In this document: positions 11,497 through 61,576 of the stretch, piece after piece
Position numbering within the stretch: the first letter of the stretch is position 1
How the letters are laid out: every line of letters begins with the position of its first letter
Assembly (NCBI RefSeq): GCF_011045215.1
Contig: NZ_CP049201.1
Direction: 5' to 3' (one strand)
Origin: Escherichia coli
GTDB lineage: Bacteria > Pseudomonadota > Gammaproteobacteria > Enterobacterales > Enterobacteriaceae
DNA: 64,000 nt
The notes under the pieces: generated by a model
The model's database searches: none
What the model saw: the letters and a program-made list of their open reading frames with translations, nothing else
What the model was told of the DNA's origin: nothing
Translations under genes and position numbers: made by a program

Positions 11497-11550
11497 ATGT
11501 CGCAAAATCAAGAAATTAGCAAGAAAGAACAATACAATCTGAACAAGTAA
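11497..11550 (+). pseudogene. ttcC: Remnant of the original ttcA 5' end (ttcC-like), displaced by prophage integration
   Basis: ATG...TAA encodes MSQNQEISKKEQYNLNK*, paralogous to the intact ttcA N-terminus [17 protein letters not shown] at 60641; stop lies immediately after the att core. Confidence 0.7.
11532..11546. repeat. attL core (15-bp direct repeat ATACAATCTGAACAA)
   Basis: Identical 15-mer at 60676..60690 inside ttcA; flanking bases show extended imperfect identity. Confidence 0.8.
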
Positions 11551-11643
11551 GGGCAAAAATCACAACCATCTGATGCATAATAGTTTTATTTATTTTTCAA
11601 TGCGTTAATCATTATCAGCAACAACAATAAGCTACGATAATCC

Positions 11644-11697
11644 ACTCTTTTGTTGCCCCATTTTTGCCCCTTTTACAGCATTTTGCCCCATTTTTGC
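11644..11697. promoter_or_regulatory. Repeated TTGCCCCATTTTTGCC motifs; candidate integrase arm-type binding sites
   Basis: Two copies of TGCCCCATTTTTGCC ~100 bp inside attL; a related TTTGCCCCATTT motif sits between int and attR (60601-60620). Confidence 0.4.
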
Positions 11698-11785
11698 CAC
11701 CGAAAAAATTCCAAAACTTCTCAACCTCAGCACGTTCTTGAATATGGCATATGACAATTTCCTTTACGATTTATATGCTGTTATA

Positions 11786-11815
11786 AAAATCCCCAGTTGT
11801 CAGCAACAACTGGGG
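11786..11815 (-). terminator. Rho-independent terminator after the HTH-peptidase gene
   Basis: CCCCAGTTGT-CAGC-AACAACTGGGG hairpin followed by a U-rich tract on the minus strand. Confidence 0.7.
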
Positions 11816-11873
11816 ATTTACTTTTCAGGCCCAAAAGACGTTCACTACGACTCTAGATGTGAGCATTTACGGG

Positions 11874-12980
11874 TCATACTAGTCGGAGCGAAGCCCTTGA
11901 TGGTGTTCTTTTGTTATTTCCGCCACTAATTGCCGCAACTCCATAAAGCAAACTACTCAATTCATCGAGAGGTACGTTAAGCTCATTACTCAAGTGAGCC
12001 AGATAAATGCCGTCTCCAGCCAGAGCAGTCATCATTTTTTCTATAACGAGTGATCTTTCGCGCTCAATTCCCCCCGGCTCACCGGTTCGATACCCCTTTG
12101 CCGTCGCATCACGCATCAAACTATTATACTGCCATTCCGTCAGCATATTTAGATTGCGCATTCTGACAATCAGGGCCATAGCCGAAACTTTCCAGAGTGA
12201 TTTCAATTGCACAATTTTATCAAACGTCGGGACCACCATCTTAACGGCCATCACGTTTTCCTGAGGCATTAGAAATGCAGAAGCAAAAGCATCCGCTTCA
12301 CGCTCAGCATCCTGCCCTTTGACTTCCCCTTGACGATGAAGTACTAGGTGAGCCAATTCATGTGCGGCATCAAAACGGCTGCGTTCACCTGACTTGCGTG
12401 TGTTAAGAAAGATATAAGGAACATCATCTTTCCAGAACGAAAAAGCATCAATACTCGCTGTTTCCTCTGAAAGCCAGAACACCTTAACTCCAAATTTCTC
12501 AAGTAGATGAACAACATTGGTGATACTCTTCTTACCAATCCCCCAAGCCTCGCGTATCGCTTGGGCAGCGACCTCAGGCTCACTTCCACGGAGATTCGGC
12601 AATTGAGGCGAAGGAAGAGTAAAGCGAGCATTAAAATAATCGCTAAGCATAACCCCTAAAGCACCTGCACCAATTGCCGCATGCTGGTCAGCAGCTTTTG
12701 TTGTGCGTAATGAACGAAATGAAACAGTCAATGGATCAATTGTTTCAACATCATCGCCAAAGAAAAAAGCCTCTGGATAATTTAAAGCACTAGCGTATGC
12801 GCGTACCGTCTCTGCCGTGGGTGCATAAAGACAATAATCTTTTTCGTATTCAATTACGATACGACTAGATAACCCGGTTCGCCTCGCCAGTTCTGCCAAG
12901 GTCAGTTTGCGTCTGATCCGCGCTAGCTTTAGTCGAGACGGATTAAAAAGACGTTTGACATCATCAACAGTGTTACTCAT
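11874..12980 (-). CDS. Fused XRE-family HTH / ImmA-IrrE (COG2856-type) zinc metallopeptidase protein; candidate antitoxin or regulator
   Basis: N-terminal HTH (LKLARIRRKLTLAELARRTGLS) and HEXXH motif (HELAHLVLH); ATGA start/stop overlap with upstream gene. Confidence 0.75.
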   Translation of the reverse strand: MSNTVDDVKRLFNPSRLKLARIRRKLTLAELARRTGLSSRIVIEYEKDYCLYAPTAETVRAYASALNYPEAFFFGDDVETIDPLTVSFRSLRTTKAADQHAAIGAGALGVMLSDYFNARFTLPSPQLPNLRGSEPEVAAQAIREAWGIGKKSITNVVHLLEKFGVKVFWLSEETASIDAFSFWKDDVPYIFLNTRKSGERSRFDAAHELAHLVLHRQGEVKGQDAEREADAFASAFLMPQENVMAVKMVVPTFDKIVQLKSLWKVSAMALIVRMRNLNMLTEWQYNSLMRDATAKGYRTGEPGGIERERSLVIEKMMTALAGDGIYLAHLSNELNVPLDELSSLLYGVAAISGGNNKRTPSRASLRLV

Positions 12981-13648
12981 TTGCTTTCAACTGAAATTGA
13001 TATGTCATCATCAAAATCCTGTTCAGGGAAAATATCCGCACCTTCAAATTGCAGAGGAGCTAAAATAATTCGCTCACTCCACGCGCTTACTCTGGCAAAT
13101 CCGTCCTGATTCACCATCCCTACCGGATACGACACCTCACAGCGAATTTCTTTATTTGCCGCATCATAATAATACAGAACGATATAAGTTCGGGTGCTAT
13201 CTATCGGCGTGATCTCAGCTTTGCCTGAATGTAAGGTATCTGCTTGGAACATATCGAATGTACCCGGATTGTTGTGAACAATCGAGCGAGTTGCCTCTCC
13301 CTTTGCATTTTTGGTTTTAGGCAATCCATCAGGACGCCCGGTATGTCCGTCACCTGAGGTAATAATCAGATTAACCCCTTTGCTTGAATTAACGACCATT
13401 TCCATGCGATTGACTACTTCAGAAGACCAGCCGTTACCCTTACCAATCAGAATACGGCGAAGCGCGGCAACCATCTCACTCCAAAAGCGGAATCCAGCAT
13501 CCACTTTAGGGTGGAGCTTACTGGATTTGCGTCGCTCGTATAAAGCAGACATTAACGCATCGCGAATATCATTTTCTGTAAAGCCCAGTTTACTAAGTAC
13601 AAAATCCGAATCAATTCCTGTATGCAGAACACAATGAGGCATATTCAT
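12977..13648 (-). CDS. Hypothetical protein, partner of the HTH-peptidase gene (candidate toxin/effector)
   Basis: Track ORF 12977..13666; ATG at 13648 with GGGAGA upstream; no recognisable motif; translationally coupled to downstream gene. Confidence 0.55.
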   Translation of the reverse strand: MNMPHCVLHTGIDSDFVLSKLGFTENDIRDALMSALYERRKSSKLHPKVDAGFRFWSEMVAALRRILIGKGNGWSSEVVNRMEMVVNSSKGVNLIITSGDGHTGRPDGLPKTKNAKGEATRSIVHNNPGTFDMFQADTLHSGKAEITPIDSTRTYIVLYYYDAANKEIRCEVSYPVGMVNQDGFARVSAWSERIILAPLQFEGADIFPEQDFDDDISISVESK

Positions 13649-13884
13649 GAAAGTTTCTCCCATCACTTTTACTTCATGATTTTATCATAAAATTTATGCA
13701 AAAATCAAGAAGTGACACCCTGCAAGCGATTGTAGACTTTCTCTTGTTTTCTTACGTTCCTGCTCTCCAATTGCGCAATTGATTTCTTCAACAATATGAG
13801 AGTACACATCATAAACCTCCGACTGCAGCCAGCAACCGGAGCCTCATTCTTCAGATACCAGAACAACTCACTGCGACCTATTCG

Positions 13885-14448
13885 TTACTCAACATTAAAT
13901 GCTCGTATCGCATCTAAATCCTCCAGACTACTCAACTCCTCCTTCATCTCCCGCTGACGCTGATAAATCTCGTCATTGCGATCGACCTGCGCCTGAACCA
14001 TTGCAGTAAGTAGCTCATCCAGTTGTTGCATTGACAACTTTACCTGCTGATTTTCCGCATCACCCCATACCATGTTTTTCCGTGCCGTGACTGATTTTGC
14101 TGATATCACCACCGGGTAAAGACGGGCCATCGAATCCGGTCCCCCGTTCCAGCTATGACCGTTCCATTCAAAAATGAATGGCTGCGCCTCCTGCTCTGTA
14201 CGCCATGCTTCAATTTCCCGGCGTTTGGCTGCTTTTGCTGCTTCCAGCATCTCTGGCGTGACGGTGAACGGCGTTATTTCTCCCCACTTGCCGCTTTGCA
14301 GTTCCTGCCAGACTCGCTGCCCTGTCTCTGCTGTATCCGTGGCAGTTGCCGTATACGGAACCGGTTCATCCATGCCATCAAACAACACCCCGCAGTCAAT
14401 CGCGCCATTTTCAAGATAACGCGCATTTTCGATGCGTTTTATTTCCAT
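13885..14448 (-). CDS. Tail fibre assembly protein (Tfa-like chaperone)
   Basis: Begins MEIKRIENARYLENG...; directly downstream of the Stf-like fibre gene. Confidence 0.75.
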   Translation of the reverse strand: MEIKRIENARYLENGAIDCGVLFDGMDEPVPYTATATDTAETGQRVWQELQSGKWGEITPFTVTPEMLEAAKAAKRREIEAWRTEQEAQPFIFEWNGHSWNGGPDSMARLYPVVISAKSVTARKNMVWGDAENQQVKLSMQQLDELLTAMVQAQVDRNDEIYQRQREMKEELSSLEDLDAIRAFNVE

Positions 14449-14455
14449 AAAACAC

Positions 14456-15880
14456 CTACGCAATACGTATGAACAAACCAATCATGACACTGGCTGACCC
14501 GGCAGACCCGAGTTCATCGCCTGACAGTGCACGATATGACCCCGGCATACCACCACCAGAACCCCGCACATATACGGAAACGCTGCCGTTATATCCAACC
14601 CCGCTACCGGTCGTGCCGTGACACATAAATTCAACCGCGCTCAGACGTGACCCCGGATAGCTGTACCCGCGTTTTATCCGGCGGTCGGTGTCTGCGTCTC
14701 CCTCACCGTTACAGGCCGCCAGTACAAGACTGCCTGTACCGTACCAGCCGTCCGTGGTACCGGGAGCAATACCGGACAGAAGAGAGATAATGTCCTGTGA
14801 GGTCATCTTCAGATTTTCCCAGCCAGTCAGATAACCATTACCTGTTGTCCAGTAGCGGCTGTAATAAACATCGCCATTAATACCGTAGAAAATAATGGCC
14901 TTTGCTGTATATCGCGGCTCCGGTGGATTATTGCGTGCCTCAACCCACCGGATTCTGACCACCCCGTTAAACAACACACCTCCGGATATGATTTTACTGC
15001 CACCCTCAACAAAATATTCACCCGGCGTCGCATTCCTTACCCATGCCAGAAAATCATCCTCTGTGTTAAAACGGATACGCTCTGCGGGCAAAAAAATATG
15101 CCCAAAACCAAATGCGCCAGGTGTCGCCAGACGACCTTCAGTCCGGTCACGAATGTCGCTCTGTGGCATCATTGTGGCAGCGCTTTTCAGTCCAAGATTA
15201 TCACGGGATTCCTGCTGAGCCTCTTCACCTTCATCAGCCAGCTCTGACAGGCGATTCGCCGTTTTCAGTGTCGCAGATAACGCAGTATCAATATCTGCTC
15301 TGGCCTGCTCTGCACCGGATGCGGCCTGTTTAGCAGCTTCAGCGTCCTTTTTTACCTCTGCGGCGGCATTCTCAACCTGCGAGGCCAGATTTTCGGCCTG
15401 TTGTTTACCCTCCGCAACAGCGTCGGCGTTCTGCTGAACACCTTCCGCCAGTTTTTTTACCTCTTCTTTTGCCCGGGCGGCAGCATCTGCATGTTGCCCT
15501 GCCTGTCGTTCGCTTTCTGTTGCGGTTTCGGCACCCTGCTGCGCCTGCGCCACCATTTCCTCAAATCGTTTCACCACGTCGGGTTTGAGGTCGCCTTCAT
15601 CCAGGGCAGTCAGAAAATCGTTCAGCGTGCCGGGCTTTGAGTCGTCGTATACAGCAATATCGCCAACACAGTACTCGTCGCGCCAGCCCTGTTTCAGATA
15701 TACGCAATATTTTCCGGTCTGCGCCTCAAAACAGTACTCGCCACAGTTTCCTGTCACCACGTCGGCAACTGTGCGCATCACCACCTCTGAGGTGTTTACC
15801 CGGGATTTCAGAATAATGTGGCATCCGGACATGGAGATACCTGCGCCATCAATCAGCGCACCTGATATCACTACAGACAT
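14456..15880 (-). CDS. Side tail fibre protein, lambda Stf-like
   Basis: N-terminus ISGALIDGAGISMSGCHIILKSRVNTSEVV...YDDSKPGTLNDFL resembles lambda Stf; Ala/Glu-rich coiled-coil centre. Confidence 0.8.
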   Translation of the reverse strand: MSVVISGALIDGAGISMSGCHIILKSRVNTSEVVMRTVADVVTGNCGEYCFEAQTGKYCVYLKQGWRDEYCVGDIAVYDDSKPGTLNDFLTALDEGDLKPDVVKRFEEMVAQAQQGAETATESERQAGQHADAAARAKEEVKKLAEGVQQNADAVAEGKQQAENLASQVENAAAEVKKDAEAAKQAASGAEQARADIDTALSATLKTANRLSELADEGEEAQQESRDNLGLKSAATMMPQSDIRDRTEGRLATPGAFGFGHIFLPAERIRFNTEDDFLAWVRNATPGEYFVEGGSKIISGGVLFNGVVRIRWVEARNNPPEPRYTAKAIIFYGINGDVYYSRYWTTGNGYLTGWENLKMTSQDIISLLSGIAPGTTDGWYGTGSLVLAACNGEGDADTDRRIKRGYSYPGSRLSAVEFMCHGTTGSGVGYNGSVSVYVRGSGGGMPGSYRALSGDELGSAGSASVMIGLFIRIA

Positions 15881-19878: not shown

Positions 19879-21039
19879 TTATTCAACCTCTTCTAAACTG
19901 CTCACTCTGGACCCTCGGCGGAAATTATCATCATTTTTAACATACTCGTATGAATCCAGAATCAAACCAGATATGCGAAGTATATCTTCCGGATTAGTTA
20001 TATGTATCCTTTTACCATCCGTATCAAGTCGAGCTCGTCTTATTTCATTCAACTGAACTTCACTAAGCGAAATAGGTAAAGTTATAAATGAAGATTTTTT
20101 ATCATAAAATCTTAACAGCCATCTATTTGTTTTACCATTCAATAGTACACCGAAATATGACTCAGTATCTTTATATTCTATATTATCTTCTGTTTGTATG
20201 ATTTGTTTTACCCTTTCAAATAGCTCCAATTCTTTGGCTGTGGTTATTATGTTGGGGTTTTCTTCATCAACAATGGCGTTATTAACTTGTGTATCCGTTG
20301 CATCATTTTCTTTAGTTTGCTCTACCGGTTGTGTAGATAGCCCGGAAACCACCATTGCGCTAACAGCGCGCTCAACGGCCTGTTTAACTAATGGAGTCAC
20401 GAACTCAAGAAATCTCTGATTAAGTTGTCTCTCAATATTTGAACGACTAGCAACATATCGAACAAACTCCAGATCAACTTCACGAAGACTAGAACTGATT
20501 GTTTTAGTAAATGAATTCAAATAAACACTTTCTTCAGCCAGTGTCCGTAAAGCCTCTGGTTTGAATTTATCATAACGAAAACGAAATAATTGTGTAATAT
20601 CGGAGTGAGTTAGAGAATCCATTCTTAATTTTAAAAACGGCGTTGAATCCATTATGTTTTTTTGTTTCAAATCCGTAAAAAAACGCCATTCAACACCATT
20701 TGTAATGGCTGATATAGTAACTTCCGGTGTTGAATTAAAATATCTTGATAGCTGTGGGCAGTGATTATCAATTTGTTCTGAAAACGATTTCGCCTCAATG
20801 AACATCACAGGAACATCATGACAAAATAAAGCGTAATCAACCCGTTCATTAGCCTTAACCCCGGGGAAGTCAGCACTATACTCAGCTTTGACTTTTCTTG
20901 GATCATACGGAGTAAAACCAAGAATATCTAGTAATGGCATAATGAGTGCTTGTTTTGTCGTTTCTTCAGTTGTACAAAACACCCCCATTTTTGCAACATG
21001 CTCTGTGTGTATTTTTAACTTATTTGCAAAATTTTCCAT
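19879..21039 (-). CDS. PD-(D/E)xK nuclease-fold protein (HsdR-N/Mrr-like N-terminal domain) with unknown C-terminal domain; cargo gene
   Basis: Track ORF 19879..21054; ATG at 21039 with GGAGGAGA upstream; motif ...VDYALFCHDVPVMFIEAK... (D...E-x-K); own AT-rich upstream region and own terminator. Confidence 0.7.
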   Translation of the reverse strand: MENFANKLKIHTEHVAKMGVFCTTEETTKQALIMPLLDILGFTPYDPRKVKAEYSADFPGVKANERVDYALFCHDVPVMFIEAKSFSEQIDNHCPQLSRYFNSTPEVTISAITNGVEWRFFTDLKQKNIMDSTPFLKLRMDSLTHSDITQLFRFRYDKFKPEALRTLAEESVYLNSFTKTISSSLREVDLEFVRYVASRSNIERQLNQRFLEFVTPLVKQAVERAVSAMVVSGLSTQPVEQTKENDATDTQVNNAIVDEENPNIITTAKELELFERVKQIIQTEDNIEYKDTESYFGVLLNGKTNRWLLRFYDKKSSFITLPISLSEVQLNEIRRARLDTDGKRIHITNPEDILRISGLILDSYEYVKNDDNFRRGSRVSSLEEVE

Positions 21040-21188
21040 GCTTGTCTCCTCCATGGTAACAATATGTATTTTGCAAATCCGAAATAATATATGTCAATAT
21101 GCTCCAGCTTAGAAAATTACTCGCCCCCCTAAAATATCTCTCTACAGCACTCCAAACCAAGGTAAAAGTTTTATCATAAAACTGTGAT

Positions 21189-42820: not shown

Positions 42821-43277
42821 GTAAAAAAACACCCCGTCAAAGGCACCCGCAGATACCTTTTGTGTGGTGTTATCTGGTGTTTTCTGGTGTGGTGTGTGCA
42901 GGACACAGATGTGAAAAAGGTCCGCTGGTACGAACCCTGTATATGGATAAAAAAATGCCCGTCAGGAGACGGGCCAGAGCATTCATCGTGTAGTAATAGA
43001 ATTATATTTATATATGGTCGCCACCAGAATGAGTCGTCAACCTACAAAGCCATCCTGGCTTACTGTACGTGTGCGCATGGAACAGGTAACGACTCATTCT
43101 GCTAACGACGTTTACAAGTAATAATCACATACCATTATGTAATACAAAAAAAAGCAGCACTGAAACTGTAACCGTTCAGATATTACAGCATGAAGAAAAA
43201 CAATAGTACCTACAAAGCTGTTCTCCGCGAAAATTCGCCAGTGCTGATAAAGCTATGCCTCGTTTGTTTTACAGGAG

Positions 43278-43349
<72 letters not shown>

Positions 43350-43352
43350 ATA

Positions 43353-43428
<76 letters not shown>

Positions 43429-60589: not shown

Positions 60590-60640
60590 TTGCAAAGTTT
60601 GCCCCCAATTTGCCCCATTTAGTACCAGAGAACTGAAATA

Positions 60641-61576
60641 ATGCAAGAAAATCAAAAGAATACGAAGAAAGAGATATACAATCTGAACAAATTACAAAAA
60701 CGCCTGCGTCGTAACGTGGGCGAAGCCATTGCTGACTTCAATATGATTGAAGAAGGCGATCGCATCATGGTTTGCCTCTCCGGGGGTAAAGACAGCTATA
60801 CCATGCTGGAGATTCTGCGCAATTTGCAGCAAAGCGCGCCAATCAATTTTTCGCTGGTGGCTGTTAACCTCGATCAAAAGCAACCGGGCTTCCCGGAACA
60901 CGTTCTGCCCGAGTATCTTGAAAAGCTGGGCGTTGAGTACAAGATTGTTGAAGAGAACACTTACGGTATCGTGAAAGAGAAGATTCCAGAGGGCAAAACC
61001 ACTTGCTCACTGTGTTCTCGGCTACGTCGCGGTATCCTTTATCGCACCGCAACGGAACTGGGGGCGACGAAGATCGCGTTGGGCCACCATCGTGACGATA
61101 TCCTGCAAACGTTGTTCTTAAATATGTTCTACGGCGGTAAGATGAAAGGTATGCCTCCGAAACTGATGAGCGATGATGGCAAACATATCGTTATTCGTCC
61201 GCTGGCCTACTGCCGCGAGAAAGATATTCAGCGATTTGCCGATGCAAAAGCGTTCCCGATTATTCCGTGCAACCTGTGCGGTTCACAGCCTAACCTGCAA
61301 CGTCAGGTGATTGCTGACATGTTGCGTGACTGGGATAAACGTTATCCAGGGCGTATCGAGACGATGTTCAGCGCGATGCAGAATGTGGTGCCGTCGCATC
61401 TGTGCGATACCAACCTGTTCGATTTCAAAGGCATCACCCACGGTTCTGAAGTGGTTAACGGGGGTGATCTTGCGTTTGATCGCGAAGAGATCCCACTACA
61501 ACCGGCGGGCTGGCAGCCAGAAGAAGATGAAAATCAGTTGGATGAGTTACGGCTGAATGTGGTTGAAGTGAAATAA
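60641..61576 (+). CDS. ttcA: tRNA 2-thiocytidine(32) synthetase TtcA (5' end and promoter supplied by prophage DNA)
   Basis: 311 aa; PP-loop SGGKDS, CxxC clusters; N-terminal 11 codons differ from the ttcC remnant. Confidence 0.95.
60676..60690. repeat. attR core (15-bp direct repeat ATACAATCTGAACAA) inside ttcA codons 12-17
   Basis: Identical to 11532..11546. Confidence 0.8.

Follow-up and report, generated by a model that had tools for sequence, protein, structure and literature searches.

The 64,000-nucleotide stretch of Escherichia coli DNA analyzed here (contig NZ_CP049201.1 of RefSeq assembly GCF_011045215.1), hereafter called the window, carries a compact two-gene module inside a prophage. 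By sequence comparison, we regard it as secure that this pair, rmrT and rmrA, is a divergent member of the known toxin–antitoxin (TA) defense system RosmerTA. Three features of the module, a motif of the clamp-binding type in the toxin family, an SspB-like tail on the antitoxin, and a candidate operator, suggest how it may work.

Organization and identity of the rmrTA pair

Both open reading frames (ORFs) lie on the minus strand at 11874-13648 and overlap, as the initial annotation had described: the ATG start codon of rmrA (12980-12978) and the TGA stop codon of rmrT (12979-12977) share the sequence ATGA at 12977-12980. The start of rmrT at ATG 13648 is backed by 223-residue homologues that begin at the equivalent methionine; the RefSeq form in strain C7 is a 228-residue toxin (687-nt coding sequence) read from an upstream ATG. 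The terminator proposed earlier is present as a strong hairpin ∼55 nt past the rmrA stop codon (fold z = −4.2, with none of 200 shuffled sequences equally stable). A simple scan misses it because its stem runs into the U-run. The end of the module lies 328 bp from the attachment (att) core of the prophage, close to the ∼330 bp first estimated. The coordinates of all features are given in Table 1.

Table 1. Positions of the rmrTA genes, their protein motifs and flanking signals in the window
Feature	Position	Strand	Description	Basis
rmrT	12977..13648	-	223-residue RosmerTA toxin, stop codon included	PADLOC RmrT PDLC03935
rmrA	11874..12980	-	368-residue antitoxin/regulator, stop codon included	PADLOC RmrA PDLC03949
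RmrA XRE-type helix-turn-helix (HTH)	12765..12932	-	residues 17-72	Pfam HTH_3, E=3.7e-08
RmrA ImmA/IrrE-type zinc metallopeptidase	12159..12500	-	residues 161-274	Pfam Peptidase_M78, E=1.3e-20
RmrA C-terminal tail LRLV-COOH	11877..11888	-	after variable Gly/Ser/Lys-rich linker	SspB "XB"-like
RmrT clamp-motif site	13247..13261	-	residues 130-134, TFDMF; start of low-confidence loop	family consensus QL[SDE]LF
Shine-Dalgarno GGGAGA	13656..13661	-	7 nt upstream of rmrT ATG 13648	read from the sequence
Candidate operator	13671..13713	-	43-bp imperfect palindrome, 21-nt arms, 18/21 paired; overlaps predicted promoter	
Intrinsic terminator of rmrTA	11780..11819	-	15-bp stem, 3-nt loop, U-run (UUUUUAU); stem ∼11787-11819	direct folding
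att core ATACAATCTGAACAA	11532-11546 and 60676-60690		15 bp; first copy within short duplicated ttcA 5′ end, 11497-11550	

RosmerTA was named by Millman et al. 2022, who described its toxin as one “of unknown function” and verified the anti-phage activity of a single system, that of E. coli OLC-716. In searches against the defense profiles of PADLOC, RmrT matches model PDLC03935 with E=1.4e-59 (profile positions 10-206 of 207), and RmrA matches PDLC03949 with E=5.6e-143 (positions 2-362 of 363). The OLC-716 toxin matches the same model, PDLC03935. When compared with the OLC-716 reference sequences, taken from Table S2 of Millman 2022, the window toxin is 29% identical to the verified RmrT over residues 7-200 (E=4e-19), and the window antitoxin is 44% identical to its counterpart over the full length (E=8e-106). 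The RosmerTA relationship that the initial annotation had offered as one possible match is thereby borne out. Its statement that the 223-residue protein has no recognizable motif holds for Pfam, NCBIfam, and PHROGs, where the toxin finds no match, but not for the defense-specific profiles.

The architecture agrees with this assignment. RmrA combines an XRE HTH and an M78 zinc peptidase with an intact HEXXH motif in a single polypeptide, which substantiates the fusion described previously, and the two genes adjoin each other on the same strand in the order toxin–antitoxin, with a single promoter-like site and one terminator. The OLC-716 system is likewise a toxin-first operon of a ∼220–240-residue toxin and a ∼370-residue XRE HTH/M78 antitoxin, and it shares with the window pair the C-terminal LRLV(K) tail of the antitoxin, the type of promoter palindrome, and carriage on a mobile element. 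It differs in that its genes are separated by a 9-bp gap and reside on a P4-like satellite, whereas the window pair overlaps in ATGA and sits at a prophage end; at the clamp-motif site, the OLC-716 toxin reads QGELIL and the window toxin TFDMF. The two halves of RmrA additionally give secondary PADLOC matches to capP (E=1.2e-19) and capH (E=1.2e-05). The annotation itself is routine, as a run of a defense-finding program would label the pair RosmerTA and add one more prophage-borne defense cargo.

The pair is rare. A megablast search with a 2.2-kb region recovered it from 7 of 5426 complete E. coli genomes, always on the chromosome and with 99.4–99.5% identity. Proteins identical to those of the window are also encoded on hundreds of contigs from E. 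coli and Salmonella, where the annotation gives no more than hypothetical, XRE, or ImmA/IrrE proteins. At all related loci examined, the toxin gene is directly followed by an RmrA-type ORF, and the surroundings vary widely: an island of Yersinia in which a SIR2-nSTAND gene is the neighbor, a locus adjacent to RecE/RecT, lambdoid prophages of Serratia (nin region), E. coli elements that carry a MobQ relaxase, the P4-like satellite of the verified system, and several non-enteric genomes. The settings thus include a satellite, ICE/IME elements, and a defense island. In Alcanivorax sp. PN-3 (L017:3100-4330), an intact rmrA-like ORF that ends in SLHLVK follows the rmrT homologue, although it is uncalled in the source annotation. 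This Alcanivorax pair, too, occupies the end of a P2-like prophage, with a lysozyme gene before it and a type III restriction gene next to it. An apparently decayed RosmerTA remnant is present in E. coli 1105 and three other genomes (L009:4109-4399); there, in a CP4-57-like island (yfjQ, GTPase), a 96-residue “ImmA/IrrE” fragment with 85.8% DNA identity to part of rmrA adjoins ComF-family and AAA ATPase genes and has no toxin partner.

In strain GmM062, the same ttcA site is occupied by a sibling prophage whose tail-fiber genes are 95% identical to those of the window but which lacks rmrTA; the pair is therefore dispensable for the phage. The corresponding slot, flanked by uspF/att and the DUF4376 gene (L002:3926-4879, equivalent to window 11870-13880), is occupied by an unrelated 317-residue gene on the opposite strand (WP_047649541.1). 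This protein has no match in PADLOC or PHROGs and is a candidate cargo or defense gene of the same hotspot. The prophage end had been described as a moron/defense locus from the start, and both the replacement in GmM062 and the recurrence of the pair in differing mobile elements agree with a variable cargo slot at this position. They support the view that rmrTA is an autonomous two-gene cargo module.

These data also bear on the possibility that the HTH-peptidase is an ImmA-type repressor or anti-repressor of prophage induction and the upstream gene an unrelated phage accessory, for example of the tail fiber. ImmA/IrrE peptidases do regulate the induction of mobile elements, and the pair directly follows tail-fiber genes. 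However, both genes travel together in elements without tail genes and at differing positions in other prophages, the upstream protein has no structural match in PHROGs, and the sibling prophage dispenses with the pair. We therefore rejected a tail-fiber accessory role for the toxin, which the recurrence of the pair in tail-less elements rules out, and we give hardly any credence to the explanation as a whole.

The toxin and its clamp-type motif

RmrT belongs to a large family. Searched with a family profile, 1.84 billion representative proteins yielded 1899 clusters at 50% identity (E<=0.001), and among the best 150 of these 1899 clusters nearly all members have ∼190–250 residues. In an alignment of 144 sequences, Gly-117, Glu-171, and Arg-193 are invariant, and Leu-18, Gly-52, Arg-64, Trp-74, Gly-99, Thr-103, Gly-104, Pro-110, Lys-116, Asn-127, Leu-158, Arg-169, Ser-173, Pro-175, and Trp-190 are conserved in at least 90% of the sequences. 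The AlphaFold2 model of RmrT (predicted local distance difference test score (pLDDT) 89.2, predicted template modeling score 0.84) comprises three N-terminal helices, a three-stranded meander, a helix (residues 118-126), a loop (residues 127-152), and three long strands. Most of the loop is modeled poorly, with a mean pLDDT of ∼55 in the blocks 131-140 and 141-150.

The beginning of this disordered loop carries a family motif of the clamp-binding type. When 255 family members were aligned to the family hidden Markov model, the five columns right after Asn-127 held Gln in 153 sequences, Leu in 117, Asp, Ser, or Glu in 132, Leu in 178, and Phe in 184. The commonest exact pentamers at this site are QLSLF (14 sequences), QLELF (7), and QLDLF (3). 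The pattern Qxx[LM]F occurs 81 times anywhere in the 255 proteins, and 75 of these 81 occurrences fall on the motif site. Bacterial proteins enter the hydrophobic cleft of the β sliding clamp through the consensus QL(S/D)LF (PMC9690074, citing Dalrymple 2001). The loop peptide of the window toxin that spans the site is NNPGTFDMFQAD; its degenerate motif, TFDMF, retains the L/M-F hydrophobic anchor, with Gln replaced by Thr. From these features, the toxin may dock on the DNA sliding clamp.

Experimental work on a distant relative leads to the same protein. In the literature searched, only one such relative, RipA (Spr1630) of Streptococcus pneumoniae, has since been assigned a target: this toxin, called Rosmer-type by its authors, interacts with DnaN in a yeast two-hybrid assay, and suppressors map to the hydrophobic pocket of DnaN (PMC12795458). 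The paper mentions no clamp motif. We recovered the RipA gene through the published primers and an exact-match genome scan. RipA is similar in size to the window toxin but matches only another PADLOC RmrT model, PDLC03931, and a profile–profile comparison with the window family by hhalign was not significant (E=0.23, probability <1%). Its structural model is of low confidence (pLDDT 59.8) because a word-indexed search yielded only six RipA relatives. The model nevertheless shows the same order of secondary structure elements as RmrT, and RipA carries QMELV, a Q-x-E-L-V sequence, in its own low-confidence loop after the helix equivalent to that of RmrT. Given the different PADLOC model and the profile–profile E value, we rejected a transfer of the RipA–DnaN result by homology. 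The motif of the window family instead constitutes independent evidence that points to the same target, DnaN.

The fold of RmrT offers a further lead. Foldseek found nothing significant for the model in the PDB, and a profile search of PDB sequences returned noise alone (an Hsp70 substrate domain and BfiI, E>0.1). In AFDB50, Foldseek retrieved uncharacterized family members only, one of them labeled “restriction endonuclease.” In the 144-sequence alignment, the strands that should carry the canonical D…(D/E)xK pattern show no conservation of it. The fold may thus be weakly likened to that of restriction endonucleases without the catalytic motif, which we treat as a lead rather than a finding. 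RmrT could accordingly be an enzyme, most likely a nuclease of the PD-(D/E)XK fold that kills by cutting DNA, in which case a functional clamp motif would merely recruit it to replication forks. Nuclease activity of this kind is the main rival of clamp docking, or its complement; we consider it unlikely.

Another possibility is that toxins of the window family act on the membrane, like the RosmerTA toxin of Gordonia phage Kita. The Kita system protects against phage infection, and depolarization by its toxin RmrT-D5 has been demonstrated (Ernits 2023); a later preprint extends depolarization to “RmrT” in general. The Kita toxin, however, has a predicted membrane-localized C-terminal region, whereas the model of the window toxin is a compact soluble α/β domain without a long hydrophobic helix. 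Moreover, the Kita paper itself calls RmrTs diverse, and PADLOC holds several distinct RmrT models. For the window family, we therefore judge a membrane target very improbable.

The antitoxin, its candidate operator, and its C-terminal tail

The HELAH sequence of RmrA corresponds to residues 207-211 (nt 12348-12362) and is part of the HELAHLVLH stretch at residues 207-215 (nt 12336-12362); Glu-226 is a candidate third ligand. His-207, Glu-208, His-211, His-215, and Glu-226 are invariant, together with an FASAFLMP block, in seven sequences of RmrA and its pneumococcal counterpart RipB (Spr1629) that range down to 30% identity. Judging from this conservation, the peptidase is probably active. 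By sequence, RmrA has no relative of solved structure.

The N-terminal HTH of RmrA is matched by a candidate binding site in front of the operon. The region upstream of rmrT contains a predicted σ70-like promoter with a −35 element TTGATT (13708-13703), an 18-nt spacer, and a TG-extended −10 element TAAAAT (13684-13679), and this promoter is overlapped by an imperfect palindrome that scores 12, as compared with a maximum of 9 in 1000 shuffled sequences. The outer 12-nt arms, ACTTCTTGATTT and AAATCATGAAGT, are invariant in four loci whose toxins are 54–83% identical to that of the window, amid intergenic DNA that cannot be aligned. In 8 of 11 other loci, a comparable palindrome with arms of 14–23 nt ends 17–37 nt before the toxin start codon; the palindromes at loci L018 and L019 and at the RipAB locus are of just 6–7 nt. 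The inner arms covary between loci (CATAA/TTATG, ACCTCA/TGAGGT, and CCCCTAA/TTAGG). A conserved palindrome that covaries in this way is the footprint expected of an operator bound by a dimeric RmrA HTH, and we infer that it serves this role.

At the opposite end of the protein, 9 of 12 RmrA/RipB sequences terminate in L-[RKQH]-L-[VI]-(K). The tails read SLRLV in the window, TLKLV in Yersinia, DLKLV in Serratia, NLQLVK in Providencia, SLHLVK in Alcanivorax, and RPSHLRLVK in OLC-716. They resemble the C terminus of E. coli SspB, RGGRPALRVVK (PDB code 8ET3, chain Y), in which a flexible linker likewise precedes L-R-[VL]-V-K (compare RPALRVVK with RPSHLRLVK of OLC-716), whereas the remainder of SspB is unrelated to RmrA. 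The XB peptide of SspB tethers this adaptor to ClpX at its zinc-binding domain (PMC12373786). The RmrA tail may therefore be a ClpX-binding tether that gives the antitoxin an adaptor role.

Genetic results from relatives connect systems of this kind to ClpX and ClpP. In S. pneumoniae, RipB neutralizes the toxin in trans; the essentiality of ClpX there is due solely to RipA, and overexpression of RipB offsets the loss of clpX (PMC12795458). In three Pectobacteriaceae, the essentiality of rmrA and clpX coincides exactly with the presence of RosmerTA (preprint). In E. coli E101, a prophage TA system of this architecture (E101_02645/02644) renders clpP essential (Rousset 2020/2021), and the lethal Vmi480 of Vibrio mimicus is counteracted by Vmi470 (Luo 2015, PMC4671572). 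The E101 and V. mimicus systems could be compared by description: in both, the toxin gene precedes that of a ∼360-residue HTH/zinc-peptidase antitoxin on a mobile element (MGIVmi1 in V. mimicus), the toxin is lethal, and the antitoxin is essential. Vmi480 differs from the window toxin in its length of 198 residues and in a 5-bp intergenic gap. A suppressor substitution in the E101 toxin E101_02645, T46S (Rousset 2020 preprint), would lie next to the conserved T-x-N-H-P sequence (T46-T47-Q-N-H-P in OLC-716) if that protein is a family member.

An adaptor-like tether on RmrA would account for the release of the toxin when ClpX or ClpP is lost. Were the tail instead to mark the antitoxin for degradation as a degron, losing ClpXP should protect the cell.

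Proposed mechanism and prophage setting

Combining these features with the genetics of the relatives, we propose the following course of events. A single promoter would drive both rmrT and rmrA, and RmrA, presumably as a dimer, would bind through its HTH to the 43-bp palindrome over the −35 and −10 elements and repress its own operon. RmrA would also neutralize RmrT post-translationally, as shown for the relatives Vmi470 and RipB and in keeping with the failure to delete rmrA in relatives, probably together with ClpXP: its LRLV(K) tail may tether it to the N-domain of ClpX and so deliver the toxin. Upon infection, control by RmrA would lapse and RmrT accumulate, with the ImmA/IrrE-type peptidase domain as the likely switch. 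RmrT could then dock on DnaN and block the replication of host and phage, leading to growth arrest or abortive infection. The autorepression, ClpXP-control, and DnaN-docking steps are proposed because of the sequence features described here and the genetics in relatives. The peptidase switch is drawn by analogy. In the pairs CapP/CapH, ImmA/ImmR, and IrrE/DdrO, the HTH partner is cleaved in response to a damage signal. These pairs, like RmrA, join an XRE HTH with an M78/ImmA protease; the two activities reside in separate proteins there and are fused in RmrA, and the pairs control the transcription of other genes, whereas RmrA also neutralizes a toxin.

A functional parallel is SocAB of Caulobacter crescentus. 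In this system, the toxin is described as binding the cleft of the β clamp through a clamp-binding motif and blocking replication, and the antitoxin as promoting ClpXP degradation of the toxin, so that ClpXP becomes essential (Aakre 2013, cited in PMC12795458 and PMC9690074). SocA differs from RmrA in having neither an HTH nor a peptidase, and the authors of the RipA study detected no resemblance of SocB to RipA in sequence or structure (PMC12795458). We claim a functional analogy alone and no homology. Our tentative proposal, possible but short of probable, is that the main RosmerTA family, including OLC-716 and the window copy, works in the manner of SocAB, with RmrT directed at the clamp and RmrA acting as autorepressor, protease-type sensor, and ClpX adaptor.

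Several observations weigh against the proposed mechanism. The window toxin and its whole enterobacterial clade (T-x-[DE]-[LM]-F) lack the Gln of the motif. RipA, the source of the DnaN result, belongs to a different RmrT subfamily; its homology with the window RmrT is not demonstrable, and its model is poor. The conserved polar residues of RmrT (invariant Glu-171 and Arg-193, as well as Lys-116, Arg-169, and Arg-64) suggest more than passive binding to the clamp. RmrT-D5 of phage Kita, itself a RosmerTA toxin, depolarizes membranes, and there is thus no one target common to all Rosmer toxins. Although RipB is ClpX-dependent, it ends without an LRLV(K) tail; tethering is therefore at most part of the explanation. 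The clpP-dependent system of E101 could not be linked to the window toxin family through accessions, as the OLC-716 system and other E. coli variants carry different ones. Finally, for this particular pair the support is sequence-based, toxicity and protection having been shown in relatives.

A different interpretation holds that the pair is mainly a module for prophage addiction or stabilization, or a stress-response TA system, as has been proposed for pneumococcal RipAB, and that it plays no appreciable part against phage in this host. The relatives indeed behave as classical TA modules with undeletable antitoxins and lethal toxins, and the pair is rare among the complete E. coli genomes. 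RipAB, whose antitoxin has the same HTH/ImmA architecture and is 30% identical to the window RmrA, and whose toxin is restrained by ClpX, is chromosomal and linked to competence rather than to phage. RipAB differs from the window pair in its toxin subfamily (PDLC03931), the missing tail, and its setting, and its DnaN targeting is experimental. Against this interpretation, a relative that matches the same toxin model as the window toxin protects E. coli from phages (Millman 2022), and the sites occupied are typical of defense genes: a variable slot at a prophage end, a P4-like satellite, and the neighborhood of a SIR2-nSTAND gene. We thus hold a mainly addictive or stress-related role to be improbable.

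Overall, we favor with moderate confidence the reading of the window pair as a RosmerTA module that is exchangeable prophage cargo and operates through the proposed clamp/ClpXP mechanism. Its value lies in the mechanism: in the literature searched, the clamp consensus of the toxin family, the SspB-like tail, and the operator are all undescribed. If these features hold, they would unite the essentiality of ClpX or ClpP in E. coli, Pectobacteriaceae, and S. pneumoniae with the dnaN suppressors, and would show that a clamp-poisoning toxin under the control of a ClpXP adaptor arose independently a second time. A SocAB-like mode of action, if true, would explain why clpX and clpP are essential in strains that carry Rosmer systems.

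The prophage itself follows a stretch of E. coli chromosome with nifJ/ydbK, ompN, and uspF. The second copy of the att core, at 60676-60690, is located at the start of the intact ttcA gene and adjoins a tyrosine recombinase. Around the first copy, an ORF fragment with the sequence MSQNQEISKKEQYNLNK and a stop (11497-11550) resembles the start of TtcA and corresponds to the ttcA 5′ end displaced by integration, which we take to be comparable to ttcC at the Rac site of K-12. Repeats like TTTGCCCC(A)TTT occur in several copies just inside both prophage ends (11640-11700 and 60596-60620); examples are TTTGCCCCATTT at 11682 and 60609, and the repeats look like arm-type integrase binding sites. The gene directly upstream of rmrT (13885-14481, minus strand) encodes the DUF4376 tail-fiber-type protein. 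Adjacent tRNA genes for Gly-TCC and Thr-TGT are found within the prophage at 43277-43428 (minus strand). Between the tail and baseplate genes lies a 391-residue gene (19879-21054, minus strand), an odd site for a nuclease gene: its RefSeq relatives are annotated as “type I restriction endonuclease,” and the protein has no PADLOC match but corresponds over its full length to PHROG 4225, “endonuclease” (E=1e-148).

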